Shown one piece after another: positions 21,434 through 59,206 of a stretch of 64,000 bases of DNA. The notes under the pieces are model-generated. The model made no database searches. It was not told where the DNA came from and saw nothing but the letters and a program-made list of their open reading frames with translations. How positions within the stretch are numbered: position 1 is the first letter of the stretch; each line of letters opens with the position of its first letter. A program made the translations under genes and the position numbers. This DNA comes from an uncultured Anaerolineae bacterium (GTDB lineage: Bacteria > Chloroflexota > Anaerolineae > VGOG01), in the NCBI GenBank assembly GCA_964390805.1, contig CAYMKL010000014.1:706-64705 (forward strand), given 5' to 3'.

Positions 21434-24400
21434 ATGACCAATCCGGTATTGATCTTGGGCGGGAGCATTGGTGGCCTGCAGGCTGCTCTTGATCTAGCCA
21501 ACTCAGGGCTAGAAGTATGCCTGGTAGAGAGATCGCCCTTTCTGTGTCCTGAGCCTGTCGAAGGGCTTGAGGGTGATGTTGCAACGCCCTCGCACCTTCT
21601 GGCAAGCAAGTTCCTGGAGGCAGTTAAACACCCAAACATCCAGGTGTTCACCAATGCTGAGGTGACGCCCCCCCTTCATCCCCCCCAAAGCTGGGGGGGA
21701 AAAGCGGGAGGGCGGGGCGATTTCCAGATCGAGCTGCAGCAGCACCCCCGCTACGTGGACATGGCCAAGTGCACGGCTTGCGGAGAGTGCGTCCCCGTCT
21801 GTCCCGTGACGATACAGCGCCCCAGCGTCGTAGCGCCCCAGCGTCCAAGCGAGCAGCGCGTAGACGCCAAGACGCTTGGACGCTTCGACGCTGATCGACC
21901 CATCTACAAGCCCGATAACGCTGTGCCGAGCATTTTCGCCATCGAAAAGCGCGAGCCAGCGCCCTGCAAAGTAGCCTGCCCAGCCGGCATCCACGTCCAG
22001 GGCTACGTGGCCCTCATCGCCCAGGGCAAATCCGCCGAAGCCCTGGCCCTGATCCGCGAAGCCATCCCCTTCCCAGGCATCTGCGGCCGCGTCTGCCACC
22101 ACCCCTGCGAGGATGCCTGTCGGCGGGCCGAGCACGACCAGCCAATTGCCATCCAATACCTCAAGCGCTTTGTAGCAGATTGGGAAAAGTCCAACCTCCA
22201 ACCCCCAACCTCCAACCTCCAATGTCCAATATCCAATATCCAATATCCAACCAAAGTTGCCATCGTCGGCAGCGGCCCCGCCGGCCTCACTGCCGCCTAC
22301 TTTTTGGCCCGCGATGGCTATCCTGTCACCGTCTTCGAAGCCCTGCCTGTAGCTGGTGGCATGATGGCGGTGGGTATCCCCGCGTATCGCTTGCCCAGAG
22401 ATGTCCTCCAAAGCGAGATCGAGGCCATCAAGGATTTGGGGGTGGAGATCCGCACCAACACCGTCGTCGGCCCGAACGGTGATTTGTCTTTGGATGACCT
22501 CAGAAGGGACTACGATGCCGTGTTCGTGGCGGTGGGCGCTCATGGCAGCCGTAAGTTGAACGTTGAAGGTGAAGATTTAGCCGGCGTGCTTCACGGGGTA
22601 GATTTCCTGCGGGAGGTGAACCTGGACCCTTCGACAGGCTCAGGGCGCGGCCGGGAGGTCACGGTCGGCCAGAAGGTGCTGGTGATCGGTGGAGGCAACG
22701 TAGCCATTGATTCGGCCACGGTAGCCAGGCGATTGGGAGCACAGCAAGTCACCATACTCTACCGTCGTTCCCGCGAGGAGATGCCCGCCAATTCATGGGA
22801 GATCGAGGAGGCTGAAGAAGAGGACGTCGCCTTTCAATTTCTGACGACGCCGACCAGGGTGTTGGGCGAGAATGGACGGGTGACCGGGTTGGAATGTCTG
22901 CACATGGAGCTGGGCGAGCCCGACGAGAGCGGGCGAAGACGGCCCATGCCCCTCCCCGGTTCGGAGTTCGCGGTTGAGGCGGATACGGTTATTGTGGCCA
23001 TTGGCCAGGTGTTGGATATTGGATATTGGATATTGGAGGCCTGCCCTGAGCCTGGCCTAAGGGTTGGAAATTGGATCGTCGCGGATCCTGTGACTCTGCA
23101 GACGAATCTGGAGGGCGTTTTCGCTGGCGGCGATGCGGTGACGGGGCCGGCTACGGTCATCGAGGCCATCGCCGCGGGGAAGCGGGCGGCCGAGTCCATC
23201 GCGCGATACCTTAGGGGCGAAGACCTGGCCACCGGACGCAGGTTGGGGCGGCCTGACATCTCCGGCATCGAGTACTACACCCCACCCGTCGTCGAGCCAG
23301 AAGCCAGGGTGCCAATGCCCAAGCTCTCCTTAGCTGAAAGAGTGGATTTTGCCGAGACCAACCTGGGCTTCAGCGAGAGGGAGGCCATGGCCGAGGCGGA
23401 GCGCTGCCTCTCCTGCGGCGTCTGCTCTGAGTGCCTGGAGTGCGTCAAGGTCTGCGAGCCGGGAGCCATTGACCACAACGCTCAATGGGAGCGCCTGAGC
23501 CTGAACGTGGCGGCGGTGATTCTAGCGGATGGCAGGCAACAGCAGGGTGTGTATTCGATTAAGCCTGGGGACGCGTTAGAAGCCTCCGCTGCCGCTGCCA
23601 AAGTCATGGCCGACCTGGCCGCGTATCGAACATTCCCTCCAGTTCCCTCTTTCCCTTCTCTTTCCGCCCCTTCCAGAATTGGCGTGTTCGTCTGCTGCTG
23701 TGGCAACGAGATCAGCAGCGTCGTGGATGTTGATGTGGTGGTAGGCGAGATTTGCCGTTTGCCCGGCGTGGCTCTCGCTGAGAATGTTCCCTTTGCCTGC
23801 CATGAGGAGGGGACGGCGGCCATCCAGCAGGCCATCGTCGAGGAGGACCTGGATCGGGTGGTGCTGGCTGCCTGCTCTTGCTGCTCCCTCGACCAGGTCT
23901 GCGACAGTTGTACCTACCAGCGGGTGCGCTGCAAACTTCAAACGCTAAACTCTAAACTCCAAACTGGCTTCGAGTTTGTCAACATCCGCGAGCAGTGTGC
24001 CTGGGTGCACGCCGACGAGCCGCATAGAGCCACGGCCAAAGCCAGGAGCATCATCGCCTCTGCCGTAGCCAAGGCGCGTCAGGATGAAGCCAGGGCCAGG
24101 AGCACTGTTTCCCTCGACCAAAGCGTGTTGGTGATCGGGAACGGGATAGCTGGCGCGGTTTGCGCCGACGCACTACAGGCCCAAGGTTTCCAGGTTTTCC
24201 GAAGCGAGCCCCCGCCTCTGACTGTGAGAGGCTCCGTAGGCAACTTCACGGCGATCATGCCTGAATCAGGCGGGGAACGGGAGCTGAGGATCGGTGCCAT
24301 CGTCCTGGCCTCTGAGGGCGAGTTGGATATTGGAAATCCGGGAGTCTTCGCCTACGATCCGGAAGATGGGTGTGATCCGCAGGTCTGGGGTTTGGCCGTT

Positions 24401-24697: not shown

Positions 24698-24866
24698 GTA
24701 CCATCTCTACCTGGCGGAGGAGCTGGGGTATTTGCAAAACGAAGATGCGAAAAGGCTATCGGCGATCAGCGATGAAGCAGCCAAAACCCTGCAGGGCCTC
24801 ATCAAATGGTTGGAAAAGCAGCTCCGAGCCGGCAAGCTCACCAAAGACGACCTGAAACGGTGAGCC
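24684..24866 (+). pseudogene. C-terminal remnant of a four-helix-bundle protein (23S rRNA IVS protein family), no start codon
   Basis: Frame +1 relative to upstream gene, open only from 24684: YHLYLAEELGYLQNEDAKRLSAISDEAAKTLQGLIKWLEKQL; matches C-terminal consensus (LgYi...ee...l.....ei.kmL.gLIk.L) of that family; bracketed by GGTTGTAGG and CCTACAACC repeats. Confidence 0.3.
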
Positions 24867-24900
24867 TACAACCTACCATCTACAACCTACTACCTGCTCA
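24866..24900. repeat. heptamer array CTACAAC/CTACCAT upstream of mvhD
   Basis: cctacaacctaccatctacaacctactacctgctc. Confidence 0.55.
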
Positions 24901-24911
24901 GTGGAGAAGCA

Positions 24912-25301
24912 ATGGCTGAAACGGAACCACGTGTCGTTGTGTTCACTTGTAACTGGAATGCCTACAGCGCGCTGGAGACGGCCGGCTCTAGGCGATTGGC
25001 TTATCCGGCCAACGTGCGCCCCATCCGGGTGATGTGCCTGGGACGGCTGCATCCGGGCCTCATTCTCAAGGCGTTTGAGTTGGGAGCCGATGGTGTCTTG
25101 CTCCTGGGCTGCCCGCCTGGAGAATGTCACTACGAGTTCGGCAACGAGCGGGTGGAAGAGCTTTTCCAGGAAACCAGCGCCATTGCCCATCTCCTGGGCA
25201 TCAAGGACGAGCGGTTGAAGCTGGATTCGGTGGGAGCAGGGGAAGGTGAGGCCTTCGTTCAGAAAGTGGCGGAGTTCTATCGGCAGGTTGTAGGGTTGTA
25301 G
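24912..25301 (+). CDS. mvhD: MvhD-like hydrogenase/heterodisulfide reductase iron-sulfur subunit D
   Basis: 129 aa; VVFTCNWNAYSALETAG...MCLGRLHPGL...GCPPGECHYEFGN Cys pattern of MvhD. Confidence 0.8.
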   Translation: MAETEPRVVVFTCNWNAYSALETAGSRRLAYPANVRPIRVMCLGRLHPGLILKAFELGADGVLLLGCPPGECHYEFGNERVEELFQETSAIAHLLGIKDERLKLDSVGAGEGEAFVQKVAEFYRQVVGL

Positions 25302-25347
25302 CAAGTAGTTGTAGCTATTTACTACAACCTACCATCTACCTACTGGA
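25285..25347. repeat. inverted heptamer arrays GTTGTAG ... CTACAAC (hairpin) at mvhD 3' end
   Basis: caggttgtagggttgtagcaagtagttgtagctatttactacaacctaccatctacctactgg. Confidence 0.55.
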
Positions 25348-25352
25348 GAACC

Positions 25353-26531
25353 ATGGAAGCCATTAAGCACATCATCAACAACACCAAAGCCTATTATTGC
25401 CTGGAGTGCGGCAAGTGCACTGCGATTTGTCCCATCTCGCGCCGGGAAGCTACCTACTCGCCTCGCCTGACGGTGGAGAGGGCCTTGTGGGGCGAAGGAG
25501 AGGAGCTATTGACCGATGCGCTGCTCTGGTCTTGCCTCACTTGCCAGCAATGCTCGACGCGCTGCCCCTCGGCTGTTCATTACGTGGAGTTCATCCGTGA
25601 CATGCGAGCTTTGGCGCGCGGGGAGGGTGAGGAGGGGCTCTGTTCGCACGGCGAAGCGATCCAGACCTGGATGCGGATGATGGCTTCGCCCGAGTTGAAG
25701 CAAAACCGCTTGGAGTGGCTCGATGAGGATCTAAAGGTTTCTGCCGACTCCGACACCGTCTACTTCGTCGGCTGCCTGCCGTATTACGACGTTCTTTTCA
25801 ACAAGATCGGCGCCCAGGGTGTGGAGATTGCCCAAAGCGCCGTCAGGGTGCTCAACCGATTGGGCATCAAGCCCATCATCTTGGAGAACGAGCGCTGCTG
25901 CGGCCACGACCTTCTGTGGGAGGGCGATGTCGCCAACTTCCGCAATCTGGCCGAACCGAACATCGCGATGCTCCAGGCGACAGGGGCCAAGCGCATCGTC
26001 ACCACCTGCCCCGAGTGCGCTCGCACACTAAAGGTTGACTACCCCGCCCACGTAGGCGACCTGGGGATGGAGGTAGTGCACATTTCACAGCTTCTGGCGG
26101 ATTGGAAGTTTGAAGTTGGAACTTCCCCCCCAAAGCCTGCCCTGAGCAAGGTCGAAGGGTTGGGGGGGATTGAGGGGGGGCTTAAAGTCACCTATCACGA
26201 TCCCTGTCGCCTGGGGCGGCACCTGGGCGTATACGAGGAACCGCGCCAGGTCATGAGTGTCCTGGGCCTGGAGTTGGTAGAGATGGAGCACAGCGGCAAG
26301 AACGCCCTGTGCTGCGGCACCAGTTGTTGGACCAATTGCGGGGCCGTCAACAAGCAGATCCAGGTGGACCGCCTGCGTGAAGCCCAGGCCACCGGTGCCG
26401 AGTTATTGGTTACTGCCTGCGCCAAGTGCCAGATCCATTTCAAATGCGCTCTGGACGATGCAAGAGTCAGTAACGAGATAGGGATTGAGATACGCGATTT
26501 GGTCACTTTGGTGGACGAAGCATTGGCTTAG
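25353..26531 (+). CDS. HdrC-HdrB-like fusion (2x4Fe-4S ferredoxin domain + two CCG cysteine-rich domains)
   Basis: 392 aa; CLECGKCTAICP and CLTCQQCSTRCP; CCGHDLLW and ...CCGTSCW...CAKC CCG-domain motifs. Confidence 0.8.
   Translation: MEAIKHIINNTKAYYCLECGKCTAICPISRREATYSPRLTVERALWGEGEELLTDALLWSCLTCQQCSTRCPSAVHYVEFIRDMRALARGEGEEGLCSHGEAIQTWMRMMASPELKQNRLEWLDEDLKVSADSDTVYFVGCLPYYDVLFNKIGAQGVEIAQSAVRVLNRLGIKPIILENERCCGHDLLWEGDVANFRNLAEPNIAMLQATGAKRIVTTCPECARTLKVDYPAHVGDLGMEVVHISQLLADWKFEVGTSPPKPALSKVEGLGGIEGGLKVTYHDPCRLGRHLGVYEEPRQVMSVLGLELVEMEHSGKNALCCGTSCWTNCGAVNKQIQVDRLREAQATGAELLVTACAKCQIHFKCALDDARVSNEIGIEIRDLVTLVDEALA
26097..26187. repeat. compound repeat: TTGGAAG heptamers + C7/G7 element carrying a nested PEPVEG element
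   Basis: ttggaagtttgaagttggaacttCCCCCCCAAAGcctgccctgagcaaggtcgaagggttGGGGGGGattgagGGGGGGG encodes WKFEVGTSPPKPALSKVEGLGGIEGGLKV in-frame in hdrCB-like gene. Confidence 0.7.
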
Positions 26532-26608
26532 TTTGGAAGTTGGACGTTGGAAGTTGGATGCTGGATGTTGGCCTTCAAATCTCTGACTTCCAACCTCTAA
26601 TCTCCAAC
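26532..26608. repeat. inverted heptamer arrays (TTGGAAG x5 ... TTCCAAC/CTCCAAC) intergenic hairpin
   Basis: ttggaagttggacgttggaagttggatgctggatgttgg...cttccaacctctaatctccaaca. Confidence 0.65.
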
Positions 26609-26620
26609 AAGGAGGAGGAA

Positions 26621-27961: not shown

Positions 27962-28003
27962 AACGTGAAACGTGAAGCGTGAGGACCACGTTTTACGTTT
28001 TCG
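27954..28003. repeat. inverted heptamer arrays (GAAACGT x4 ... ACGTTTT x2) hairpin between sugar dehydrogenase and hdrA
   Basis: gaaacgtgaaacgtgaaacgtgaagcgtgaggaccacgttttacgttttcg; supplies ET* terminus of upstream gene. Confidence 0.65.
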
Positions 28004-28016
28004 ACGGGAGGTGCAA

Positions 28017-30638
28017 ATGGCTAAGCAAGACCTGCGCATCGGCGTTTTCGTCTGCGACTGTGGGCTCAACATCGCTGGGAGCGTGGACACCGAGGCGGTG
28101 CGGGAGTACGCCGACACGCTGCCCGACGTGGTGGTGGCGGTTGGCAACAAGTACACCTGCGCCGACCCCGGCCAGCAGGAGATCAAGCGCCACGTGGTGG
28201 AACACAGGCTCAACCGGGTGGTGGTGGCCTCTTGTTCGCCCCGCCTGCATGAGCCAACCTTCCGCAACTGCATTCAGGAGGTGGGCCTCAATCCCTATCT
28301 CATGGAAATGGCCAACATTCGGGAGCACTGCTCCTGGGTGCATCTCCACGACAGGCAGGCGGCCACCCGCAAGGCCGAGGACATCGTGCGCGCGGCGGTG
28401 GCGCGGACCCGCTGGCTCCTTCCCCAGATCGAGGAACAGTTGCCCGTGACCGACGCAGTGCTGGTCATCGGCGGGGGTGTGGCTGGCATCCAGGCCTCTC
28501 TCGACCTGGCCGACGCCGGCCATCAGGTCTATCTCGTAGAAAAGGAGCCCTCCATCGGTGGGATCATGGCCAAACTGGACAAGACCTATCCCACTATGGA
28601 CTGTAGTATATGAATACTGGGCCCCAAGATGATGGATGTCGGTCGGCATCCCAAGATCGAACTTTTAGCTTATAGCGAGGTGGAGGACATCTCTGGCTAC
28701 GTGGGCAACTTCAAGATCAGAGTGCGCAGGAAAGCCCGCTACGTGGACGAGAGTGAGTGCACCGCCTGCGGCGACTGCGTCCCGGTCTGCCCGGTGGTCA
28801 AGCCCGACGAGTTCCAGACGGGCCTCTCCAGCCGCCGAGCCGTCTACATCCCCTTCCCCCAGGCTGTGCCTTCTTCGTATATCATCAACATCCAGGAATG
28901 TCTGGGCGATAACCCCATTGCCTGCGGCAAGTGCATGGAGGCTTGCGACAAGAAGTGCATTGATTTCGACATGCAGGATGGGATCGTCGAATTCCAGGCA
29001 GGGACCGTCATCGTAGCTACGGGGATGGAAGCCTACGACCCCACAGAGATGGATGAGTACGGCTATACTCGCTACGAGAACGTCATCACCAGCCTGGAGT
29101 TCGAGCGGCTGATCTCTGCCGGCGGTCCCACCGAAGGCCATTTAGTCCGCCCCACCGATCGGCGGACGCCCCAGCGCATCGGCTTCGTGCAGTGCGTCGG
29201 CTCCCGCTCCCAGGCTCGTACTGAGCCCGGTCGAAGTAATGGGCGGGGCAATCCCTACTGCTCCAACATTTGTTGCATGAACACCGTCAAAGACAGCCTC
29301 CTGCTCAAAGACCACTACCCAGACACCGACATCACCGTTTTCTACATGGACATGCGGGCTTTTGGCAAGGGCTTTGAAGACCTCTACATGCGCTCCAAAG
29401 CGGCGGGGGTCAGGTACATCAGGGGCTTGCCGGGCGAGGTGACGGAGGATGCCGAAACGCGCAACCTGCGGGTCTGGGTGGAGAATACCAGCGCGCGGCG
29501 GCTGGAGGAACACGAGTTGGACATGCTGGTGCTCTCCATCGGCGCCGTGCCCCGCCAAGACAGCGAGGTGGTCAAGCAACTCCTCACCCTCTCCCGCACC
29601 TCCGATGGCTTCTTCATGGAGTCGCATCCCAAGCTGAAGCCAGTGGACGCGCCGACGAAGGGCGTCTTCCTGGCCGGCTGTGCCGAATCGCCCAAGGACA
29701 TCAAAGACTCAGTTACCCAGGCCTCTGCCGCCGCCTCTCGCGCCGAGATCCTGTTGAGTGCTCCCACCATCAAAGTGGAGGCCATCACCGCCGTTGTTGA
29801 CGAAGCGCTGTGCAAGGCCTGCGGACTGTGTGCCCCGGTTTGTCCTTATGGCGCTATCACCTGGGAGAAGAAGCAGACGGCCCACGTGATCTCGGCCGCC
29901 TGTGCTGGGTGCGGCACTTGCGCCGCCGAATGTCAATATGAGGCCATCACCATGCGCCACTTCTCCGACCAGGCCATCTACGCCATGATAGATGCCATGC
30001 TCTCCCCCTTCATCCCCCCCAAAGTTGGGGGGGAAAGAGGGGGGGCGGCCAAGCCGCCCATCGTGGCTTTTGCCTGCAACTGGTGCTCGTATGCGGGAGC
30101 GGACACGGCGGGGGTGGGGCGCATGGAATACCCGCCCAATGCTCGCCTGATCCGCACCATGTGCTCCGGGCGAGTTGATCCTGAGTTTGTGTGGTACGCC
30201 TTCCGGAAAGGAGCGCCAGTGGTGCTGGTCTCCGGCTGTCACTACGCCGATTGCCACTACATCAACGCCAACCGCCAGACCGTGCGCCGTGTTGACGCCT
30301 TGTGGGAGGGCCTGGAGAAGCGGGGTGTGCGTCCTGAGCGCTTGCAGTTGGACTGGGTCAGCGCCGCCGAGGGGCAGAAGTGGGCCAAAGTGATGCAGGA
30401 TCTGGACGAGCTGTGGGCGGGGGTCACAGCCGAGGAAATGGAGCAGACTCGCCAGGCGTTGAAAGAGGCCAAGACGCCCATTCGTGGCTCCCTCGACCGG
30501 CTAAAGAAACCGACGGCGGCCACGATGGTTTGTGTGCGCTGCGGCAACAAGTGGGATGTCACCTACGATCCTGCTGTGGACGAGGAGCGTATGTGCTCGA
30601 AGTGTCGGAGCAACAGCGTGCGGGTGTTGATCGTGTAA
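28017..30638 (+). CDS. hdrA: heterodisulfide reductase subunit A fused to C-terminal MvhD-like domain; predicted selenoprotein (in-frame UGA 28611-28613)
   Basis: ATG 28017 after GGAGGTG (frame open from 27972); 27972-28613 and 28629-30638 share frame, separated only by TGA; readthrough gives FPTMDCSI-U-ILGPKMMDVGRHPKIELL = conserved HdrA motif with Sec at Cys position; downstream 4Fe-4S motifs; C-terminal CNWCSYAG...CSGRVD...GCHYADCHY MvhD domain. Confidence 0.75.
28611..28613 (+). other. predicted selenocysteine (UGA) codon within hdrA
   Basis: TGA aligned to the second Cys of the HdrA DCSxC-ILxPK motif. Confidence 0.6.
28634..28651 (+). promoter_or_regulatory. candidate SECIS-like hairpin downstream of UGA
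   Basis: GGAUG-UCGGUCGG-CAUCC, 5-bp stem, loop contains GGUC; begins 21 nt 3' of UGA. Confidence 0.3.
30003..30050. repeat. C7/G7 palindromic element inserted in-frame in hdrA
   Basis: cccccttcatcccccccaaagttgggggggaaagagggggggcgg encodes PFIPPKVGGERGGAAKP. Confidence 0.75.
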
Positions 30639-30671
30639 TCCAGCAGAGATAGCTGACAATTGATAATAGCG

Positions 30672-30706
30672 AAAGCCCCTCGGTTGTCATTTTACCGAGG
30701 GGCTTT
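30672..30706. terminator. bidirectional rho-independent terminator between convergent hdrA and giant gene A
   Basis: AAAGCCCCTCGG (30672-30683) / CCGAGGGGCTTT (30695-30706) perfect 12-bp stem, 11-nt loop, A/T-rich flanks. Confidence 0.6.
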
Positions 30707-30757
30707 ACACTTGGCAGTCGCGTCAGAAAGAACCTATTCGTTGTGACACTCGAAGGC

Positions 30758-33700
30758 TCACCGCGTACCGATCACCAGCAAATCGAACGGGCCGACCGAG
30801 CGGATGTTCCCGGCCCGGTCCAATGCCTCTACCTGCAAGGTGTACAGGCCAGCCGTCTTCGGCCTGGGCGTGTAGCTCCACGTCGAACCGCCCCGATCCG
30901 CGACGTGCCAGAAGGAGTCACCCTCGGGCGTGTCCAGACGAACGTAGACCTCGCTCACGCCGCCGCCGTCGCTGACCGTGCCGACCAGCACCGGCGGGGG
31001 CGCCGTCTCGGTCGCCTTGTCCGTATCCGTGACCGGCTGGTACGCATCCAGCAGGATTTCGCTGATATGGGTGATGACGGCCACTGCTGGCGGGACGGTG
31101 TCCACCTGATAGGTGCGGCTCAGCGGCACCGTCGAGCGGTTGCCCACCGCGTCGAGGCCGTAGAAGGCGATGGTCTGGTACTCGCCGTCCGCGTCCTGCA
31201 CCGTCGCCGGGGCGTAGGTCCAGGTGCCGGTGGGCGTCGTACCCGGGCGCACGTCCACAGGCCAGCAGGTTGGTTCGTCCGGAGCGACTGAAGTCGCTAC
31301 TACGGTGCTCTGCCGGCCCCTGTTGCTTCCCTTCATCTCCAGCCCTTCGGCCTCGCTCAGGACAAGTGGCAGGTAGATGGTGTAAGGATACCGCCTACGC
31401 GCCGGACTGACGCAGACCTCCAGCCCGCTGGCCTGCCGGTCGTCGTGCACCTGGCCCGTGAAGAGGTGCTCGCCGAGGCCCAGCACCGTGTCAACCAGCG
31501 CCGCGTCCACGTCGGCGTCGAGGGTGACGGTGGGCGGGGTGGTGTCCACGATCAGCGTCAGCCAGTCCGTCCAACTGCTGGTGTGGCCCAAATCGTCGGT
31601 GGCCTGGGCGCGCAGCGCGAACTGGTCGCCGTCGTTGGCTGCACCCACGTCCCAGAGGCACGACCACTGGCCGTCCTCGTGGGTGGCGTCGGGGCAGGCG
31701 ATGGTGACCGGCGAGCCACCTGGCAGTGCCTGCGCTTCCAGCGTGACGATGGGCACGCCAGAGGGGTCGTGGACGATGCCGTGCACGGCGTTGGCGTAGG
31801 GTCGGATATAGGTTGCCGGTGCTGTAATCGTCAGGCTGATGGGCGCGGCGCTGTCCACGTCGTGCTGCACCCAGATCCAGTCGAAGGTGCCATGGGTGCC
31901 ATCGGCGACGCTGGCCATCACCTCGGCCGAATCGTCGTCCAGGTCGCTCTCCACGATGCCGCTGAAGCCGAGGGTGGCCGTGATGCCTGCGCTCACGTCG
32001 CCCAGGCTCAGCACCAGCGTGTCGCTTCCGGCGAAGTGCAGCGCGCCGCGCGCGGTGGCAGTGACGCGTACGTCGGGGGCAACCTCCGTTCCCTCGTTGG
32101 CATAGCGGACGGTGTAGTTGATGACCTGCCCGTCGTGGACAGGTTCGGGGTCAACGTCGACTGGCAGGACCAGGTCCACGATGGAGTCCAGGTCGGCGTC
32201 GAGGAACTGGTCGGGCGTCAGCAGGCTGTACAGGTCGTGCTCCAGGAAGCCCAACTCGACGCCGGGCGGGTCGGCCACGATGTCGACGTGCACGTCGGCG
32301 TCGGTGAACTGGCCCTCGGCAGGGCAGACTCCCGCTCCCAGCGACGCCCACTCGTACTGCTGGGTGAGGGTGAAGTGCTGCGTCGTGAGGACCGGGCCGG
32401 GGGCGTCAATGACGCGCTCGCTGTTGAGAGGGTTCTTGTCCGGCATAGCGGCCCACAGCCGCAGCCCGTCCTCCTCGCTGGCCAGGGCGACCAGGTCGAG
32501 GGACGTAGCCGCCGGGTCGGTGATGCCCAACAGGTCGAACGGCAGGTAGACGTCGGTGTGGGGCAGTAAGTGGGCGGTGCGCTGTCCTGAGCCTGTCGAA
32601 GGATCGAACTCGTAGTATTGGGGTGGGAGAGGTGCGTCCTCGATCCACTCGTCCCCATCCCAGCGCATCAGCGCGACGGCATCGGCGTCCTCTATCCAGA
32701 GCATGTAGTCGGCCTCCAGTTGGCGGCCGTTTTGGGCCGGCAGACCGATGACGGTCACTTCGGCTGAGCTCAGTGCAGGATTGGTCATCGTAGCGGTGTA
32801 GGGGTTGAAGGCCGTCGTCGCGCCACCGGGTGCACCGGTGTCGAAGTAGACGAAGATGTCGCCATCGCCAGCCCAGTCGGCGCCGCCCCAGGCGAGTCGC
32901 AGGGCCTCGTCGTTCCAGGTCAGGTAGAGCTCCTGGACTTCATTGAGGGCCGCGCCGGTGTGAGCGTTGCGCAGCACTTCACGGTTGACGCCGATCTGAG
33001 AGCAGCCGCTATCCATCCAGCCGTGATAGTTGCCCCCACCCCCGGCCCCTCCCCCAACCCTGGGAGAGGGGAGGATGTAGTCAGGCGTGGTAGGCGTGTC
33101 TGCATAGATGGGTCCCAGGGTGTGCCAGCGTTGGTTGCCGTGCACGTCCTGGGCGACGACGTGGGCATAGAGCGCCTGGGCTTCGCCAGCCTGCTGCTCG
33201 TGGTGGCGGTCTGTGGCCAGAGCGTACGTGGTGAGCGCGGCCAGGTCGGGCGTGGGGCTCTCGGTCCAACCGGCGTAGTAACGACCTAGGTCATCGCTGC
33301 TGCTGGCGGTCCACTCGAGGATGAGTGTGGGGCCGAGGACGTCGCGGATGGTATGGCCGGATGTGAGCACCGTGCGCCTGCCCAGGCCGTTGATGTAAGC
33401 CAGCGTAACGGTGACGGGCGCGGGCTTCACCAGGTCCACGGTGACGGTCTCGGTGACCTGCGCGGTGCGCCCGGCCACGTCGGTGGCGCGGGCGGTGACG
33501 ACGTAGGCCACGCCGTCGGGCTCGCTGCCCAGGTTCCAGGTGTAGCGCCAGGCGCCATCGTGGAGGGAAGCGTCGTTCCAGGCGTCCGAAGTGGTTACCT
33601 GTACCCGCTCTACGCCCCCGGTGTCGGTGACGAGGCCGGTGAGGGCCACGCGCCCCAGGGAGAGGCGATGGGTGGTGGTCAGCACGGTTGGCTCGACGGA

Positions 33701-36700: not shown

Positions 36701-39700
36701 CTGCGAGGTCATCTCGTTGGCGATGTCCACGCTCTGAGAGCCGGCGCCGCCATCCACGACAACGTCGGTGGAGACGGTCTCTGCCTCTCCCTGGAAGAGG
36801 TCGAAGGAGGTGGACAGGTCGGTGGCCTCCAGCACGGACGGGAAGGTGACCGTCAGCCCACCCAGGGCATAGAGTTCCTGGGAGAGGTTGTTGCGCACGG
36901 TGGAGGTGTAGGCGAAGGTCACCCCAGGCGCGACGATCCAGTCCTCGTCGTCGCTCTCAGGATAGATGCCCAACCCGCTGGTGGTGAACGCCTTGGGGTG
37001 GGTCCCCAGGGTGTGCTCAGCTAAGTCGCTCAGACCGTCGCCGTCCTCGTCGGCTATGAACGGGCTAGAGGTGACGTGGGTCTTGAGGTGGTTGGCGGCG
37101 TCGTATTCGAAGTCCCAGCCGTCCAGTTCCTCTTTGTCGCTCAGGCCGTCGCGGTCCGTGTCGCGGTTGTCCGGATTGGTACCCAGGCGCACCTCCTCGC
37201 CATCGGAGAGGCCGTCGTTGTCGCTATCTCTCGACAGGGGGGAGATGTCGGCCCCACCGTTTTTGGCCCCGGCGGCGCGCATCCGCAGCTCGTATTTGTC
37301 GGACAGGCCATCGCCGTCGGAGTCCCACCTGCTGTCGTCGGGGTCGTTGCCGTGGTGGGCGAAGGAGAGCAGGCCATCGCCATCGGCGTCCGCCTGTGGC
37401 CGGAAATCGTCGCCCCAGTTGAGGGCATAGAACTCGTCCAGCGTGGCGGGGAAGACGTCGAACACGACGTGTTGGCCCATGTGTAGTGACAGACTGTCGT
37501 CAAACGTCTGGTCGCTGCACACGAAGCCATGGCTGGTGGTCCAGCACTCGACGCAGGGGATGGCGTAGCCCACGTTGAGGTAAACCGGCATGGTGCGGTT
37601 GACGCCGGCCTGGAGTGGGACGTCGTTGACTGACAGACCGCTTTGCACCCAACCTCGGTACATCGTATTGAACGAATAGGTGTGATCCTCCTCGACGTCC
37701 TGCCAGGCGGAGGACATCTCACCACGGCTGGCAGAGACATCCTGTTCACTTCGGTTCAGTTGGTAGTTGAAAGTGGTAGATCGTAGATTACTCTCAGTGT
37801 ACAAGACCGGCACCCAGCCTGTTACGCGCCAGCCCTCCGGGTCCTGATGGACAATGGTTGTGGTCAGGTTTGTGCTGAGGGCCAACGTGTTGCCTGCCCT
37901 GAGACCTCGTGAGGGATTGCCCAGCGACATATTGAGTTCGCCCATAGTTGCGTCGGACTCGATGGTGGGCTCTACGTGGTAGATGAGACTGGCTATCTTC
38001 TCCGTCAACCAGCCGCTGATGGTCGGCAGACCCAATGCCGCGAGGACGACGTCAATCAGCGACACGATGGCGACGATGATGAGGCCAATCACGGTGAGGG
38101 CGATGATGAACATCACGATGAGCAGGATGGTGGCAGCGATGCTCTGAGCTAGCAGTTGGTTGTACTCGATGCTTCCCGCCTCCATGTCGCTGGCCTGGAC
38201 GAAAAAGGTCACCCAGACGATGATGGCGCCGATGATCAGGCCGATGAGGCCGCCCCATTTGGTGGCGCCGACCCAGGTGTGCGATGCGCACAAGTAGATC
38301 TTCATGGAGGCGAGGAAGCCGAAAGCGGAACTCCTGATCATCTCCACCACCGCCGTGATGTAGCCGATGAGCTTGATAGTGGTCATCAACCCGCCTATGA
38401 GGATGTTCAGCCCAATCTCGACCCACTTGACCCCGTTGAAGTAGGCGGAAACCAGCATAGTAACCAGGGCCACGACGGCGGCCAGGGTCAGGGTGACGGC
38501 GATACCCCGGCCCCAGCCTGAGCCCAGCCACTTCAGCCAGTCGTACTTTTCGGCCAGTGCACTGGGCCACCGCCAGAGCCACTCGACGTAAGCGAGTCTC
38601 GCTAATCCCGCTTTCAGCGACACCTGGCCCAGATACCTCCAGAAGGACTCCACTGAGCGGGGGTTGATTCCCGCCAGAGCCAGCTTGTAAACTGCCTCGA
38701 TGACTTTCTCGATCACTTTACCGCCTGTCTTCAGGGCCTCGGGCTCCTCCAACTGGGCAGCCTGCGATTGCAGCACATCGTCTCCCACCTGGACGATGCT
38801 GTTGACCCCATTGTAGAGCACGAGGTAATACAACTGGATGCCCAGCAACAGGCCGGCCGCCAACTCTTCATCCTCATTGAGAGTGGGATAACGGCGCGCC
38901 AGTTCGCGCCAGTATTCGTCAATCGGGCAGGCTTCCCATGCCCCGCTGCGGTAGCGGTAGGGAGCCCAGTTGATTCCGGCCAATGTTTGTACTGGCACTC
39001 CGTCAGCACCGCTAGGGGGCAGGTCCACGGTGAGCTGGCTGCCGCTCCATTGGACGTTGCTGCCGTGGCCCTGGACGTCCAGGTTGACCACACGGTAGTG
39101 CTCTTCGCGGGCGAACATGAGCGTGGGGGTGATGGGCCCCGACGGCGACCAGTGGGCGGTGAACACATCATTCAGGATAGCCTTGGTGTCGGTCATGGGG
39201 ATGGTGGCCCGTGCCACGTCCAGGTGCTCGTAGGTGTGGATTTCCACGTGCAGGATGTTGGGGATGTTCCAGCGTTGCTCCTCGGTGTACGCGCCGTTGG
39301 TGGTGCGGTTGAAGCGGTTGTAGATTTCGGCCACGGTGACGTCGCGCTGACCATTCTCGTCTGCGTCTTGCCCGGACAGGAAGGTGTAGTCCAGCCCGTT
39401 GGCCAGCACGACGAGGCTGGCGTCGTCGTTGAGGTCATCATCTACCTGCGGGTCTTCGTAGATGAAGGCCACATCTGTGCCATGATCCTCGCGCACGCTC
39501 AGGCCAGTCAGACGCCAGTCATCGTGGTAGGTCTGCACCACGCGCAACTGGTTCTTCTCACTGTACTTCGCGCAGATGCCGTCATCGTACTCCTCGCAGA
39601 CGTCCACCAACGCGTGCACTAGCCAGACCAGCCGCACCTGCTGGGCATTGCCCCAACCCCCCTCGGTCCCCCCAGGTAGGGGGGAGGATGGCCGGTAGAG

Positions 39701-41695
39701 CATCTTGCCATAGAAAGCGACGTGCGCGTCGCCTTTGTCATCGGTGACCAACTGCAACGGCACGTAGGCCGCCTTCTCGTAGGGATGCCGTTTATCCCCG
39801 CCGTCAGCCTCCAAATCCTGGACGGAGATGCCGTAGCGAGTCAGCTCGTCCTGGGACGGCAGGTTGGTGGGAGAGCCGATGATGCGGATCTCCAGCATCG
39901 GCACCAGCTTCATGTCGCCGTTGTCGTTGGGCGAGACTGAGGTGTTGGGGTCGAGATCGTGGAAGGTCACTCCATCGGCGTCCTGTACCTGACCCCGCTT
40001 GTCGTCCTTGGGCCAATCGAGCACGTTGAAGGCATACCACAGGCGGTCGGGGTTGGTAGGGCGCAGTTGGAACTCGACGTAGGTGGCCTTGCCTTCCTCC
40101 AGGTCATCTACTTTCAGAGAGAGAGGATTGCTGCCGCTGAAAGTGGCGCTGCTCTGGTGGGGCGAGAGGTCGAGGTTGTCGGGTACGCCGTCGCCGTCGT
40201 TGTCGCGGTCAAAGAGATCGGGCGTGCCATCGTTGTCGGTGTCCCAGGTGGTTTGCGTGCTGCCGGGGAGGTTCCACTCCTGTCCGTCGCCGATGCCGTC
40301 TCTGTTGGTGTCCTTCTCCAGCGGGTCGGTGTACCAGGTCTGGCCGTCGTAGTCGAAGCCAACGACCTCGCTGTAGTCGGACACGCCGTCGCCGTCGGAG
40401 TCCCCGTAGGCGGGATTGGTGCCCAACTGTGCTTCCTGGTAGTCGGTGAGACCATCATTGTCGGCATCAGTGCCATCGTCGTCAGATTGCGGACTGTTCG
40501 ATTGCGGATTGATTCCGAATTCCGAATTCCGAATTCCGAAATCACGAGGGTTGGCGTGGGGGTTGATGGTTGGGTGGGACTGGAGGTCACGCAGAGTGCG
40601 CGCCATGTCGCTCTCCTGCTGGCGCTGTTCCTGCTCCTGGACGCGGGCTGCCTGGCGGTGGCCGAAGCTCGCTGCCTGTAGTTGTTGCAGGAACGGGCCG
40701 CAGACCATCGAGGCGATGAGGGCCACCGCCAGTGCCACGTACAGTTTCTTCGAGCGGCTGTGGGTGGCCATCACGACGACCAGCGCCAGCGTGCCGGCGA
40801 GAAACGTCGCCTGCTGGGGCGCACGAGGTGGCACGGTCAGGAGACCGGCGACAACAGCCAGGGCAGAGCGGGTTTGTGCGCGGGCCACCCTGTCACCGAA
40901 GTCGGAGAAATCGACGGTGACGTCCGCCTCGATCTGGTGGTCGTCGGGGCGTGGGGGGAACTGCAGGTGGATGATCTGGCGCAGCGGCAGGCCATCCTCG
41001 CCAACCCACAGCTCGCCCTCGCCCGCCATTCCTGCGTACTGGCGGGGCAGGTCCAGGCTCACGCCCGGCGGGAGCTCGCCCGTCTCGGTCAGGTGCTGCT
41101 GGAGTTGGTCGCGCAGGTAGGCGGCGAAGCCCGGCCCGTTGATCTCGAAGGTGTAGCGGGTAAAGGTGACCTCTCCAGCCCCCCCTCGGTCCCCCCCAAC
41201 TCTGGGGGGGAGGGTACGAGTCTCGGTGCCCTGATTGATGGCGTCCCGCGCGGCTGCCAGGTAGGCCAGGAAGTCGCCTTCGGGGGCGAAGAGGCCAGTG
41301 AAGTCGTTGACCTCCTGCCAGGGTTCGGCGCCCTGACGGGCGAAGGCGCGGTCGCCCTCGACGCGCACCTCGACGCCGCTTTCGGCGTTCAGCACGCTGC
41401 CGCCCTGGGACCAGAGGGTGAGGCGCATCGTCTGGTCAGGCAGGTTGGTCTGCCCCTCAATGCGCAGCGCGTCGCGTTTGCTCTGCCGCCCGACGTTGGT
41501 GACAGTGGGCAGCGGGACAGTGGTTTGCACGACGTCGGCGGCGAAGCGGTAGGAGCCGGCCTCGCGGGCACGCTGCCAGGCCGCCTCGATACTGCCTTGC
41601 TCGTCCGAAGACGCGATAGCGGGGTAGATGAGCGTCGCCAGGATGAGTACACCCAGGATACCCCACAGAAGATTGAGAGAACGTAGCCTTTTCAT
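30758..41695 (-). CDS. giant (3645 aa) membrane-anchored surface protein A: N-terminal signal anchor + conserved domain, TSP type-3-like Ca-binding repeats, internal multi-TM block, beta-propeller-like and Ig-like ectodomains
   Basis: Uninterrupted 10.9-kb ORF; ATG 41695 with AAAGGAGG 8 nt upstream; N-terminal 330 aa paralogous to giant B (AGSYRFAAD..., GELWVGEDGLPLRQI); DxDxDG repeats at about 40130-40500 and 37080-37400; hydrophobic block about 38000-38570 (about 8 predicted TM); C-terminal repeated ..ATD..GN.. Ig-like modules. Confidence 0.85.
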   Translation of the reverse strand: MKRLRSLNLLWGILGVLILATLIYPAIASSDEQGSIEAAWQRAREAGSYRFAADVVQTTVPLPTVTNVGRQSKRDALRIEGQTNLPDQTMRLTLWSQGGSVLNAESGVEVRVEGDRAFARQGAEPWQEVNDFTGLFAPEGDFLAYLAAARDAINQGTETRTLPPRVGGDRGGAGEVTFTRYTFEINGPGFAAYLRDQLQQHLTETGELPPGVSLDLPRQYAGMAGEGELWVGEDGLPLRQIIHLQFPPRPDDHQIEADVTVDFSDFGDRVARAQTRSALAVVAGLLTVPPRAPQQATFLAGTLALVVVMATHSRSKKLYVALAVALIASMVCGPFLQQLQAASFGHRQAARVQEQEQRQQESDMARTLRDLQSHPTINPHANPRDFGIRNSEFGINPQSNSPQSDDDGTDADNDGLTDYQEAQLGTNPAYGDSDGDGVSDYSEVVGFDYDGQTWYTDPLEKDTNRDGIGDGQEWNLPGSTQTTWDTDNDGTPDLFDRDNDGDGVPDNLDLSPHQSSATFSGSNPLSLKVDDLEEGKATYVEFQLRPTNPDRLWYAFNVLDWPKDDKRGQVQDADGVTFHDLDPNTSVSPNDNGDMKLVPMLEIRIIGSPTNLPSQDELTRYGISVQDLEADGGDKRHPYEKAAYVPLQLVTDDKGDAHVAFYGKMLYRPSSPLPGGTEGGWGNAQQVRLVWLVHALVDVCEEYDDGICAKYSEKNQLRVVQTYHDDWRLTGLSVREDHGTDVAFIYEDPQVDDDLNDDASLVVLANGLDYTFLSGQDADENGQRDVTVAEIYNRFNRTTNGAYTEEQRWNIPNILHVEIHTYEHLDVARATIPMTDTKAILNDVFTAHWSPSGPITPTLMFAREEHYRVVNLDVQGHGSNVQWSGSQLTVDLPPSGADGVPVQTLAGINWAPYRYRSGAWEACPIDEYWRELARRYPTLNEDEELAAGLLLGIQLYYLVLYNGVNSIVQVGDDVLQSQAAQLEEPEALKTGGKVIEKVIEAVYKLALAGINPRSVESFWRYLGQVSLKAGLARLAYVEWLWRWPSALAEKYDWLKWLGSGWGRGIAVTLTLAAVVALVTMLVSAYFNGVKWVEIGLNILIGGLMTTIKLIGYITAVVEMIRSSAFGFLASMKIYLCASHTWVGATKWGGLIGLIIGAIIVWVTFFVQASDMEAGSIEYNQLLAQSIAATILLIVMFIIALTVIGLIIVAIVSLIDVVLAALGLPTISGWLTEKIASLIYHVEPTIESDATMGELNMSLGNPSRGLRAGNTLALSTNLTTTIVHQDPEGWRVTGWVPVLYTESNLRSTTFNYQLNRSEQDVSASRGEMSSAWQDVEEDHTYSFNTMYRGWVQSGLSVNDVPLQAGVNRTMPVYLNVGYAIPCVECWTTSHGFVCSDQTFDDSLSLHMGQHVVFDVFPATLDEFYALNWGDDFRPQADADGDGLLSFAHHGNDPDDSRWDSDGDGLSDKYELRMRAAGAKNGGADISPLSRDSDNDGLSDGEEVRLGTNPDNRDTDRDGLSDKEELDGWDFEYDAANHLKTHVTSSPFIADEDGDGLSDLAEHTLGTHPKAFTTSGLGIYPESDDEDWIVAPGVTFAYTSTVRNNLSQELYALGGLTVTFPSVLEATDLSTSFDLFQGEAETVSTDVVVDGGAGSQSVDIANEMTSQLHAGSVESTWTWDPRQDSHREAASGKYPWYSAIAPASGWSGDYVVAALEADSTDEDDNEVTGRIVVYQAGDNLDGASLHVDDGDYDKAAHPPAIACANNGRCLVVWAEEHSDDFDIYAAIVGPNLQLVKSSFSIVRSHDHEQEPSVATNGSDFLVGWQRLHDDWEIKTRIVTNDGDVDSHEERLDSRGAQGVREDRYVDLAYVGGNYVAVWENHFSSADFDVWYAYLDGNGHYVSDSCGKIAYTNSMEELPQVAYDPNTDKALVVYRYEGEKIRGHFVQDSSVGSAFTIGTKGSDRELYYPRVAYDPQHKGWLAMWEHGPDWWDSPSSVAYQALAANGSVRASGQSYAVHWSRYSGRGTYETMYPELVPRGMSLACDDHNCAVTTNVAPWWQWGQFRYIFLHRLYLREVLPWLGDISLDEAAPVLIDADWPTSTLTSLSHGQYISATGTLIIGGDAHDPTSSIDRVEVRVDNDPWEAATGHESWAYGWRVDRYADGRHTLHTRAVDVVGHTETPGPGTDVILDSSPPQLDTDIVNFTIVTATLTAQNRWTVSLHGTVSDPMAGSEPGSGVRSVEVLLTDPDPLDAEVISGDGWQEATLDGDTLRQAQGRAWAIDYVLPIFNDDTEAVANPTGDYVFITRATDEVGNRTPEKDYPGILILLDHTAPVAELTYPDPSTTTITQTVTLSGAVMDPTYIAIGLDGLEIAFTPADGLASHAVTEPDWEDTALAQSGKGVTTSSWSHPIPADLDGIYQIDLRGNDVFDNRNDNQSTWNHWRGEIDTLAPRVAITVTLRGAGASAETTYDCWAKDFNLVEDGFECGPCSVQAADRHYFDTDWWRTWTSDATQLYQLTPSCTVPGHPDPPPFPKVTACDIHGRCTTKTAGTLLLALAQQDALLDAAVLTPTHESVLTSTEPVSVTVGAYAVDSLHTITVTVDGAFLDAATWPDGAITDTLWSTTWVPSLTLTDEGPHTLLAVASDWAGRVQADPRPDTVIVDTQPPWVSVEPTVLTTTHRLSLGRVALTGLVTDTGGVERVQVTTSDAWNDASLHDGAWRYTWNLGSEPDGVAYVVTARATDVAGRTAQVTETVTVDLVKPAPVTVTLAYINGLGRRTVLTSGHTIRDVLGPTLILEWTASSSDDLGRYYAGWTESPTPDLAALTTYALATDRHHEQQAGEAQALYAHVVAQDVHGNQRWHTLGPIYADTPTTPDYILPSPRVGGGAGGGGNYHGWMDSGCSQIGVNREVLRNAHTGAALNEVQELYLTWNDEALRLAWGGADWAGDGDIFVYFDTGAPGGATTAFNPYTATMTNPALSSAEVTVIGLPAQNGRQLEADYMLWIEDADAVALMRWDGDEWIEDAPLPPQYYEFDPSTGSGQRTAHLLPHTDVYLPFDLLGITDPAATSLDLVALASEEDGLRLWAAMPDKNPLNSERVIDAPGPVLTTQHFTLTQQYEWASLGAGVCPAEGQFTDADVHVDIVADPPGVELGFLEHDLYSLLTPDQFLDADLDSIVDLVLPVDVDPEPVHDGQVINYTVRYANEGTEVAPDVRVTATARGALHFAGSDTLVLSLGDVSAGITATLGFSGIVESDLDDDSAEVMASVADGTHGTFDWIWVQHDVDSAAPISLTITAPATYIRPYANAVHGIVHDPSGVPIVTLEAQALPGGSPVTIACPDATHEDGQWSCLWDVGAANDGDQFALRAQATDDLGHTSSWTDWLTLIVDTTPPTVTLDADVDAALVDTVLGLGEHLFTGQVHDDRQASGLEVCVSPARRRYPYTIYLPLVLSEAEGLEMKGSNRGRQSTVVATSVAPDEPTCWPVDVRPGTTPTGTWTYAPATVQDADGEYQTIAFYGLDAVGNRSTVPLSRTYQVDTVPPAVAVITHISEILLDAYQPVTDTDKATETAPPPVLVGTVSDGGGVSEVYVRLDTPEGDSFWHVADRGGSTWSYTPRPKTAGLYTLQVEALDRAGNIRSVGPFDLLVIGTR
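31343..31369. repeat. PEPVEG/LRQAQD element copy
   Basis: cccttcggcctcgctcaggacaagtgg. Confidence 0.5.
32585..32603. repeat. PEPVEG/LRQAQD element copy
   Basis: tcctgagcctgtcgaagga. Confidence 0.5.
33034..33075. repeat. diverged C-run/G-run palindromic element in-frame in giant A
   Basis: cccccacccccggcccctcccccaaccctgggagaggggagg encodes (minus strand) PSPRVGGGAGGGGN. Confidence 0.5.
34874..34896. repeat. PEPVEG/LRQAQD element copy
   Basis: cctgccctgagcttgtcgaaggg. Confidence 0.5.
38000..38570 (-). other. internal polytopic transmembrane block of giant protein A (about 8 hydrophobic helices)
   Basis: WLKWLGSGWGRGIAVTLTLAAVVALVTMLV...IGLIIVAIVSLIDVVLAALGLPTISGW; flanked on both sides by DxDxDG repeats. 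Confidence 0.6.
39651..39687. repeat. C7/G7 palindromic element in-frame in giant A
   Basis: ccccaacccccctcggtccccccaggtaggggggagg encodes (minus) LPGGTEGGWG. Confidence 0.65.
40483..40542. repeat. heptamer tandem arrays (GATTGCG; AATTCCG x4) in-frame in giant A
   Basis: gattgcggactgttcgattgcggattgattccgaattccgaattccgaattccgaaatcac encodes (minus) DFGIRNSEFGINPQSNSPQS. Confidence 0.6.
41178..41214. repeat. C7/G7 palindromic element in-frame in giant A N-terminal domain
   Basis: agccccccctcggtcccccccaactctgggggggaggg encodes (minus) PPRVGGDRGGAG. Confidence 0.7.
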
Positions 41696-54630: not shown

Positions 54631-54650
54631 GGTAAACTCCTTTCGCACTC

Positions 54651-59180: not shown

Positions 59181-59206
59181 GAACACGGATCCCTTCGACA
59201 AGCTCA
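59181..59206. repeat. PEPVEG/LRQAQD element copy, intergenic
   Basis: cccttcgacaagctcaggacaagtgg. Confidence 0.6.

Follow-up and report, generated by a model that had tools for sequence, protein, structure and literature searches.

Very short C/G-run palindromes dispersed through the genomes of an Anaerolineae lineage

Why do several genes in one stretch of bacterial DNA carry almost the same palindrome of cytosine and guanine runs inside an intact reading frame, and was it inherited or acquired? The stretch in question, called the window here, comprises 64,000 nucleotides (nt) from an uncultured Anaerolineae bacterium (Chloroflexota; contig CAYMKL010000014.1 of assembly GCA_964390805.1, positions 706 to 64,705). 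A preliminary description of this DNA had proposed that at least six such palindromes form a single family of small mobile elements that tolerate in-frame insertion, analogous to the Rickettsia palindromic elements (RPEs). The core of that idea holds up: homologues with empty sites, insertion polymorphism, enrichment of the motif and a location in protein linkers and loops favour, with a probability that we put at roughly 0.7, dispersed palindromic repeats of very small size that form a family specific to one lineage and behave as selfish or near-neutral insertional DNA.

The elements and where they occur

Palindromic sequences are indeed present at all six places in the window, and a check of its open reading frames (ORFs) puts every copy inside a long ORF:

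Copy 1, 21667..21718, + strand: full form, C7-TTCAT-C7-AAAGCT-G7-AAAAGC-GGGAGGG; peptide TPPLHPPQSWGGKAGGRG; in ORF 21434-24697.
Copy 2, 30003..30050, + strand: full form, (T)C5-TTCAT-C7-AAAGTT-G7-AAAGA-G7-CG; peptide SPFIPPKVGGERGGA; in the hdrA-mvhD fusion ORF 28629-30638.
Copy 3, 26123..26187, + strand: short form with split loop, C7-AAAG^TT-G7-ATTGA-G7; in ORF 25353-26531.
Copy 4, 41178..41214, - strand: short form, CCCT-C7-AGAGTT-G7-ACCGA-G7-C; peptide LPPRVGGDRGGAG; in giant ORF 30758-41695.
Copy 5, 39651..39687, - strand: diverged short form, C6-TACCT-G6-ACCGA-G6; peptide SSPLPGGTEGGWG; in giant ORF 30758-41695.
Copy 6, 33034..33075, - strand: related or degenerate, CCTCCCCTCTCCC-AGGGTT-GGGGGAGGGG-CC-GGGGGTGGGG (3' part also given as GGGGGTGGGGG); peptide LPSPRVGGGAGGGG; in ORF 30758-41695.

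The host genes are the following:

21434-24697, + strand: host of copy 1, an HdrA-like/GltD-like fusion enzyme of 1,087 residues.
25353-26531, + strand: host of copy 3, HdrC/B-like, with Fer4 and CCG domains.
28629-30638, + strand: host of copy 2, an HdrA-MvhD fusion.
30758-41695, - strand: host of copies 4, 5 and 6, a giant protein of 3,645 residues.

Aligned with one another, the copies resolve into homopolymer runs (C7 and G7) spaced by linkers of 5-6 nt. The full form, (G)C7-X-C7-loop-G7-Y-G7(C), is about 44-46 nt long, with X and Y taken from two reverse-complement pairs (TTCAT/ATGAA and TCTTT/AAAGA) and a loop of AAAGTT or its complement. The 36-nt short form, ACTT-C7-ARAGTT-G7-ACYGA-G7, contains a conserved block, CtT-C7-ARAGTT-G7-AcYGA-G7-C, outside of which the flanks show background information content. 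That all cores run from C to G carries no information, since C7...G7 reads alike on either strand. Copies 1 to 4 fit a single family and copy 5 is a diverged member of it, but copy 6, which had been counted in as well, resembles a different or degenerate G/C-run palindrome and is probably a member of a separate sub-family; in other genomes the same sequence often flanks short forms, and a GGGGAGGGGCCGGGGGTGGGGG motif is frequently found 3' of them. Copies 1 and 2 are near-identical, as had been remarked, sharing their initial 21 nt exactly and differing thereafter by one C/T change, a 1-nt indel and a few substitutions in the 3' linker and run. The loop of copy 3 is split, between AAAG and TT, by a nested 24-nt element of a second family (CCTGCCCTGAGCAAGGTCGAAGGG, 26136-26159), which confirms the PEPVEG element noticed there; the same composite is found at two related loci (L004 and L013).

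The motif is strongly enriched, as anticipated, and is restricted almost wholly to one bacterial lineage. Within the window, CCCCCCNNNNNNGGGGGG (C6-N6-G6) matches three times against an expectation of 0.08, with none of 100 dinucleotide shuffles reaching three, and a listing of all runs confines triple and quadruple clusters of C or G runs of at least 6 to the copy sites. Scanning public genomes, one per species, for the exact 20-mer core CCCCCCCARAGYTGGGGGGG gave at least 129 exact matches in at least 114 genome stretches. The matches listed come from 28 assemblies, almost all of them metagenome-assembled genomes (MAGs) of Anaerolineae, Anaerolineales or Chloroflexota, and several assemblies hold 10-22 copies in the fetched pieces alone. 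Single matches, again among those listed, fall in Leptolyngbya, Coleofasciculaceae, Truepera, Armatimonadota and Ardenticatenales. The cyanobacterial MAGs, Leptolyngbya (L007) and Coleofasciculaceae (L081), and the Ardenticatenales one (L104) carry the identical C7-AAAGTT-G7 20-mer beside CCCCCAATTCTGGGGG-like palindromes, which may reflect a related family or coincidence. The 20-mer is absent from 2.9 million viral contigs, giving no sign of a phage vector. Genome-specific sub-families were considered as a sign of recent bursts and rejected: both main forms co-occur in most assemblies. The 114 stretches served as the set of related loci (loci are identified by L numbers), and the fetched sequence amounts to about 0.95 Mb; the window itself lies outside the fetched genomes and is syntenic with several of them at 75-89% DNA identity.

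Are the palindromes ancestral parts of these proteins? The preliminary description had pointed out that the same peptides in distant orthologues would mark them as such. Instead, homologues without the segments were found at every site, and by this comparison all six window copies are to be read as insertions. Fifty orthologues were compared at site 2; most share 84-91% identity with the protein of the window, and two are more distant outgroups. We distinguished the following states:

Empty, 26 of 50: AMLDV-DGAKPPIVAF.
Form A, 9 of 50: ...FIPPKVGGERGGA...
Inverted form B, 2 of 50: ...FPPNLGGDEGG...
TTGGA-type palindrome, 8 of 50: EVGSWKLEVGCSNLRPPTSNLQP.
CCTGAGC-type element, 3 of 50: ACPEPSRR or ACPEPVAAAQDKLRRR.
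Other inserts, 2 of 50.

At the DNA level the empty allele reads ATGCTC-GACGTGGACGGG-GCCAAG (L115, L116 and L122). Form A substitutes 45 nt for 12 nt, a net gain of 33, and form B, present in L123 and L118, is the inverted element and 3 nt shorter. L121 holds a decayed copy at this site; decayed copies were seen in L121 and P0121 (PPEVEGERWE) and in L117 (HPAHWGEKRGV). Empty, filled, inverted and decayed versions are found among orthologues of about 88% identity, and even clusters of at least 90% identity include both empty and filled alleles. On bootstrap neighbour-joining trees built with the site masked, state A requires 3-6 changes (mode 5; 100 of 100 trees), and all states together require 11-15.

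The copies at the remaining sites are likewise missing from homologues. Site 1 is empty, and 30 nt shorter, in L116, L117 and L047, and other carriers (L049, L012, L115 and L092) hold it in other flip states: L049 and L012 read (TCTTTT, AAAGTT, ATGAA), and L092 reads (TCTTTT, AACTTT, ATGAAA), an inversion of the window copy. In L013, site 1 (about 1650-1960, - strand) has a second copy in tandem: behind a full-form copy, about 14-27 nt of flanking gene sequence (GGGCGATTTCCAGG...) are repeated, and the second copy, a nested composite, comes after them; this arrangement hints at a duplicative or templated insertion mechanism. Comparison of orthologues shows ORF 21434-24697 to vary at no fewer than 10 sites of in-frame insertion, the inserts belonging to at least 5 repeat families; two of these sites hold C/G elements in other genomes where the window is empty or carries a different repeat. 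At site 3, where the window reads ADWKFEVGTSPPKPALSKVEGLGGIEGGLKVTYHDPC, orthologues L115, L116 and L118 read AQKVGEGEFRIPNPESRITTYHDPC, the element taking the place of the orthologue loop QKVGEGEFRIPNPESRIT. For the giant protein, the giant gene of L115 was rejected as an orthologue (only 28% identical locally), and protein homologues were therefore used instead. The copy 4 segment is missing from most of 33 aligned homologues (ETRA--G.xFTRY); copy 5 adds 8 residues that about 30 homologues (YLP--AGSWGNAHQVR) lack, with other P/S/G-rich inserts at its site in P0157 and P0160; and the variable loop that holds copy 6 is shorter by 3-11 residues in six homologues. The cleanest pair of all, L083 and L020, differs by exactly 36 nt, ACTT-C7-AAAGTT-G7-ACCGA-G7, inserted between GAA and CAG.

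Long homopolymers invite the suspicion of assembly or sequencing artefacts, and contigs do break at these sites: the right-hand junction of HdrA site 2 (CCAAGCC...) is exactly where L125 (JGI Ga0438309_0013703, 1-35) begins. However, the same elements stand at orthologous positions in independent NCBI, ENA and JGI assemblies, keep the reading frame and show graded decay, so that we give an artefactual origin next to no credence. With assemblies interrupted at these repeats, the copy numbers counted in MAGs are too low. Insert-induced gene fission was considered as a source of MvhD-only proteins of 159-171 residues; the one checked comes from a contig starting at the insert junction.

Reading frame and place in the proteins

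How can such an element enter genes so freely? We called coding regions from codon-usage log-odds trained on ORFs of more than 450 codons from the same loci, with a positive open frame needed on both sides. In the window and the 114 related loci, 112 of 158 cores lie in ORFs. Among the copies at least 400 nt from locus ends, 102 of 135 (75.6%) were called coding, compared with 67.5% of random 40-nt windows under the same heuristic, and there is therefore no avoidance of genes; copies also occur in intergenic DNA. Among the 112 in-ORF copies all three codon phases are in use (36/29/47, chi-square p=0.11), as are the two orientations. That every copy is read in one and the same relative frame, as had been claimed, can accordingly not be upheld; this is plain within the window itself, where copy 1 reads PPQSWGG and copies 2 and 4 read PPKVGG and PPRVGG. 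Short forms do show a bias, lying on the coding strand as C-G-G in 41 cases and as C-C-G in 15 (p=0.0007).

Because C and G runs make no stop codons and the linkers are almost stop-free, the canonical sequences are open in 5-6 of 6 frames, and in ORFs the one frame that exposes a TGA in the linkers ACTGA, ATTGA or ATGAA is never used. Length differences between filled and empty in-ORF alleles, taken flank to flank over all loci, are multiples of three in 26 of 27 cases and span 18-63 nt (27-42 nt at single-copy sites); one intergenic difference is 31 nt. Translational bypass was considered and rejected, since with in-frame lengths and stop-free frames read-through translation is the simpler account. 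The in-ORF copies are presumably translated, in which case surviving ones would yield a Pro-Pro-x-x-Gly-Gly-x-x-Gly-Gly filler, with junction peptides such as AMLSPFIPPKVGGERGGAAKPPIVAF or EVTPPLHPPQSWGGKAGGR.

Such peptides could in principle be what is selected, as Pro/Gly-rich flexible linkers that arose by repeated convergence, and their Pro-Pro...Gly-Gly richness and their location in linkers and loops would suit this explanation. Yet a single 20-mer is read as PPKVGG, PPQSWGG or SPPKLGG according to the frame, so it is the DNA and not the peptide that is conserved; identical DNA is found outside genes, and unrelated repeat families fill the same loops. Convergence at the protein level is very improbable on these grounds.

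The location itself is well defined. In alignments with the solved structure 5ODC, chain A (HdrA) covers residues 1-458 of the window HdrA-MvhD protein and chain D (MvhD) covers 475-592; this leaves 459-474, so copy 2 is precisely the HdrA-MvhD fusion linker. Copy 1 corresponds to a 10-residue gap in 5ODC_A, at the turn (hairpin loop) between EVVDV and QGYVGNFKV, and copy 3 ends at the start of the second CCG domain (Pfam 279-364). The preliminary description had asked whether the inserts map to surface loops; the 5ODC alignments and Pfam domain limits put them in linkers or loops. An AlphaFold model of HdrA (36 close homologues) was not relied on, its mean predicted local distance difference test (pLDDT) score being 53.6; the insert scores below 50, as does half of the protein.

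Two features of these host genes deserve mention in their own right. HdrA is split into an N-terminal FAD-domain ORF of about 200 residues (27972-28613) and a second ORF (28629-30638) that begins at residue 203 of the solved HdrA and is fused to MvhD, and this split is present in all orthologous loci. In ORF 21434-24697, the N-terminal HdrA-like domain (residues 30-60; 21434-21600) lacks the DCSIC-type motif of the solved HdrA; in the 5ODC_A alignment the motif is missing where a PEPVEG repeat sits, and this copy of the domain may therefore be catalytically degenerate.

Could the palindrome be a functional nucleic-acid signal under selection, such as a hairpin or G-quadruplex switch that pauses transcription or translation between domains or binds a protein? 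G7-N5-G7 offers four G3 tracts for a possible G-quadruplex, with an i-motif on the opposite strand, in competition with the C7:G7 hairpin. Several observations are in line with such a signal: the consensus is near-invariant in about 20 species-level genomes, the sense strand of short forms preferentially carries the two G runs, domain boundaries are where copies sit, and full forms fold far better than shuffles (z -3.1 and -5.0). Folding of the short forms is not significant against shuffles; the hairpin shape originally ascribed to the elements in general is confirmed for the full forms. Against a functional role, the same essential genes are without the element in close relatives or have unrelated repeats at the spot, intact genes retain decayed copies, orthologous sites differ in orientation and show flipped loops, and copies lie in intergenic DNA too. 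Moreover, random insertions thinned out by purifying selection would also end up in linkers. An Rfam scan of 20-42 kb found no family match, only sub-threshold chance matches to eukaryotic microRNA models, at copy 2. Taken together, we consider a selected signal improbable.

Remodelling and spread

Most orthologous pairs of filled sites keep one form; the exceptions are informative. They comprise loop-only flips (L012 and L049 versus L092), whole inversions (L109 versus L004; the window versus L123 and L118), a case with the outer parts inverted and the loop kept (the window versus L012), and a swap of linker from ATGAA to AAAGA that inversion could not produce (L009 versus L069). After canonicalising, loop orientation relative to the outer parts is near random in full forms (about 16 AACTTT versus 11 AAAGTT) and about 3:1 in short forms. 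The CCTGAGC-type 24-nt element found in the loop of copy 3 interrupts AAAG and TT in L004 and L013 as well, whereas the site orthologous to L004 has an un-nested loop in L020, L048 and L078. L004 and L013 lie in different genes of one MAG and have an identical 24-mer; either the composite spread as a unit or the second family targets the loop. All of these patterns fit exchange or template switching at identical, self-complementary homopolymer runs.

We therefore favour the following scheme for selfish or near-neutral insertional DNA. It builds on what the comparisons show: insertion polymorphism, in-frame lengths, the use of every frame and either orientation, placement in linkers and loops, flips and nesting in place, and confinement to one lineage. 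Short units, open in almost every frame, would insert into genes about as often as elsewhere, spread by a trans-acting enzyme or by template switching during replication or repair, and not by selection for function. Insertions would survive in genes where their length is a multiple of three bases, the rare stop frame is avoided and the site encodes a linker or surface loop. Once in place, the identical self-complementary runs could serve as crossover or template-switch points, so that loops flip, elements invert, linkers are swapped, other small repeats nest and the copy finally decays. Tolerant spots would in this way gather successive insertions from several families.

A number of observations weigh against this scheme. 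Dispersal and presence/absence patterns point to mobility, as the preliminary description had it, but no transposase, target-site duplication or mechanism has come to light behind that label in the roughly 0.95 Mb of fetched sequence. The clean pair L083/L020 shows no target-site duplication, and there is no consistent target sequence. The longest ORFs between 18 element pairs, judged by eye without a domain scan and without a search of whole genomes, include none that is transposase-like and read as everyday housekeeping genes; in Pfam, 10 further ORFs of the window gave no transposase match. Many filled sites are replacements and not simple additions (45 nt for 12 at site 2, 39 nt for 9 at site 1). 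Form-A alleles at site 2 share one junction yet sit in at least 3 branches of the tree, which calls for site-specific insertion or for allele exchange by recombination. The consensus is very well kept over some 20 species whose genes differ by 10-25%, and the short forms have their orientation bias on the coding strand; both observations could indicate function or a strand-specific mechanism. Finally, our coding calls rest on ORFs and a codon-usage heuristic, not on a gene finder.

Do the elements transpose at all? Ectopic gene conversion or templated repair could suffice, with C7/G7 microhomology patching breaks in loop-coding regions from another copy. The replacement of resident bases, the missing target-site duplication and transposase, the identical junctions in separate branches and the linker swap between L009 and L069, which goes beyond simple inversion, all suit this explanation, as does a preference for insertion beside or within other repeats. 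However, a clean 36-nt insertion between unrelated flanks with no junction homology is hard to prime by microhomology, and the first copy at each new site must still arrive. Gene conversion is a variant of the mobility step and not a wholly different explanation, and as the sole process it appears unlikely. Within the scheme of selfish or near-neutral insertion, the replacements and the shared junction could come from templated repair or gene conversion, from integration at specific sites, or from recombination that exchanges alleles.

The C/G palindromes share the window with other mini-repeats:

3389-3405, 21548-21564, 22628-22644, 26141-26158, 32586-32602, 34879-34895 and 59192-59208, both orientations: second mini-repeat family CCTGAGC(Y)TGTCGAAGG, at least 7 copies in the window.
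22187-22249, 23012-23034, 26533-26555 and 63482-63532: TTGGA(N)TTGGA-type low-complexity or palindromic repeats.

The insert unit of the CCTGAGC(Y)TGTCGAAGG family is about 24 nt; several copies lie in frame in genes, where they read PEPVEG or PSTGSG. Its copy at 32586 accounts for 8 residues that 5 homologues lack, and the family also occupies HdrA site 2 in L117 and L120. The TTGGA-type repeats read SNLQ... or DIGYW... within ORF 21434-24697, occupy HdrA site 2 in L119 and often adjoin short-form C7/G7 copies in other genomes. An 81-nt in-frame insert at 21818-21898 (RPSVVAPQRPSEQRVDAKTLGRFDADR) has internal inverted repeats, is shared by only L092 among nine orthologues and looks like yet another repeat family. 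We offer as a speculation, and a doubtful one, that a guild of at least 5 ultra-short families (C7/G7, CCTGAGCYTGTCGAAGG, TTGGA-type and GGGAATCAGGG-type among them) is written, and rewritten in place, by a shared mechanism into the same loop-coding landing pads of proteins in this Anaerolineae clade. Such a mechanism would leave no target duplication, favour existing repeats and shuffle modules at homopolymer runs. If real, it would be a natural system keeping the loops and linkers of proteins, those of core energy-metabolism enzymes included, under constant remodelling, and its driver might be a dedicated enzyme recognising hairpin or G-quadruplex DNA rather than ordinary transposition plus selection.

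Elsewhere in the window, a gene at 54654-55286 (- strand) codes for a protein of 211 residues whose C-terminal part is a ubiquitin-family domain (Pfam PF00240, E 5e-8). It lies directly upstream of a giant ORF of 4,261 residues (41863-54648, - strand), its stop 3 bases from the start of that ORF.

Comparison with known systems

In our literature search, the exact element sequences appeared in no publication found, and none dealt with such repeats in Anaerolineae. The elements have practical consequences: they enlarge and diversify protein loops, put homopolymer tracts into essential genes, break metagenome assemblies and seed spurious indels in alignments and phylogenies of Anaerolineae proteins. 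With their many filled, empty, inverted and decayed alleles, they also provide a tractable natural system in which to study the movement of very short palindromes where no transposase is obvious, a question relevant to mobile DNA, protein evolution and Chloroflexota genomics.

REP and REPIN sequences are extragenic by definition, carry a GTAG or CGTC tag and are mobilised by RAYT transposases (PMC3116915, PMC3733652). The elements described here resemble them as short, G+C-rich, imperfect palindromes (REPs measure 20-40 bp) that are high in copy number, non-autonomous and found in nested or inverted pairs. They differ in being as frequent in genes as outside and in having, by their position profile, CTT...C ends and random flanks with no GTAG or CGTC; nor was a RAYT-like gene seen nearby in the sets of ORFs searched for transposases above. 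A second class to consider is the MITE, or miniature inverted-repeat transposable element, which is 50-500 bp long, has terminal inverted repeats of about 15-30 bp, derives from a parent insertion sequence and makes a target-site duplication. Here, by contrast, the arms are 7-nt homopolymers in a unit of 36-46 nt, no parent element was found and L083/L020 shows no target duplication.

Among inserts within genes, the byp elements reportedly described by Lang et al. in 2014 are GC-rich palindromes in Magnusiomyces mitochondrial genes that are said to break the frame and to be skipped by the ribosome. Our elements are likewise short G+C-rich palindromic inserts in protein-coding genes, whereas 26 of 27 length differences keep the frame and the used frames are stop-free. 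Cyanobacterial small dispersed repeats (SDRs), reportedly described by Elhai et al. in 2008, are said to be under 30 nt and mobile-looking, to nest in one another and to lie at times in genes. Very short nesting repeats in genes are common to both, and our 20-mer occurs once each in MAGs of Leptolyngbya and of Coleofasciculaceae; the two kinds differ in sequence and in host phylum.

Yeast mitochondrial GC clusters come closer. The GC42 cluster is a 42-nt mobile palindrome that undergoes merger and shuffling and whose transposition mechanism is described as unresolved (PMC4478555). The likeness extends to size (36-46 versus 42 nt), G+C-rich hairpins, sporadic presence among close relatives, merger and shuffling of modules and allele exchange by recombination; it is one of behaviour only, as the type of genome differs. 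GC clusters have an AG target-site signature and are mostly intergenic in an AT-rich organelle, whereas our elements are mostly genic in a bacterial chromosome and leave no target duplication, and the insertion junctions seen, GAA|CAG and GGC|GCG, show no AG signature.

RPEs, in the summaries available, are about 100-150 bp long, each family encoding a conserved peptide (PMC10969869; Ogata et al. 2000, via PMC10969869 and PMC3733652). Like RPEs, the elements of the window are dispersed palindromes lying in frame in unrelated, apparently functional genes, invite a selfish-DNA reading and come as several families per lineage. Unlike RPEs, they are 36-46 nt long, are built of C7/G7 homopolymers, use three frames and both orientations and encode no single conserved peptide; the hosts differ too, a free-living Chloroflexota lineage instead of an obligate intracellular alphaproteobacterium. 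The likeness is again of behaviour and not of family membership, with no evident sequence relationship to RPEs, which were compared by description only.

Four of these classes fail on defining features: RPEs on length and single peptide, REP/REPIN on extragenic location and tag, MITEs on long terminal repeats and target duplication, and bypassed inserts on frame break. In behaviour, as far as analogy goes, RPEs and yeast mitochondrial GC clusters are the closest. To our knowledge, in-frame selfish palindromes have so far been treated as a curiosity of Rickettsia. The same behaviour apparently exists in free-living Chloroflexota in a more extreme form, with elements three to four times smaller than RPEs that take any frame and orientation and share their sites with several other mini-repeat families.

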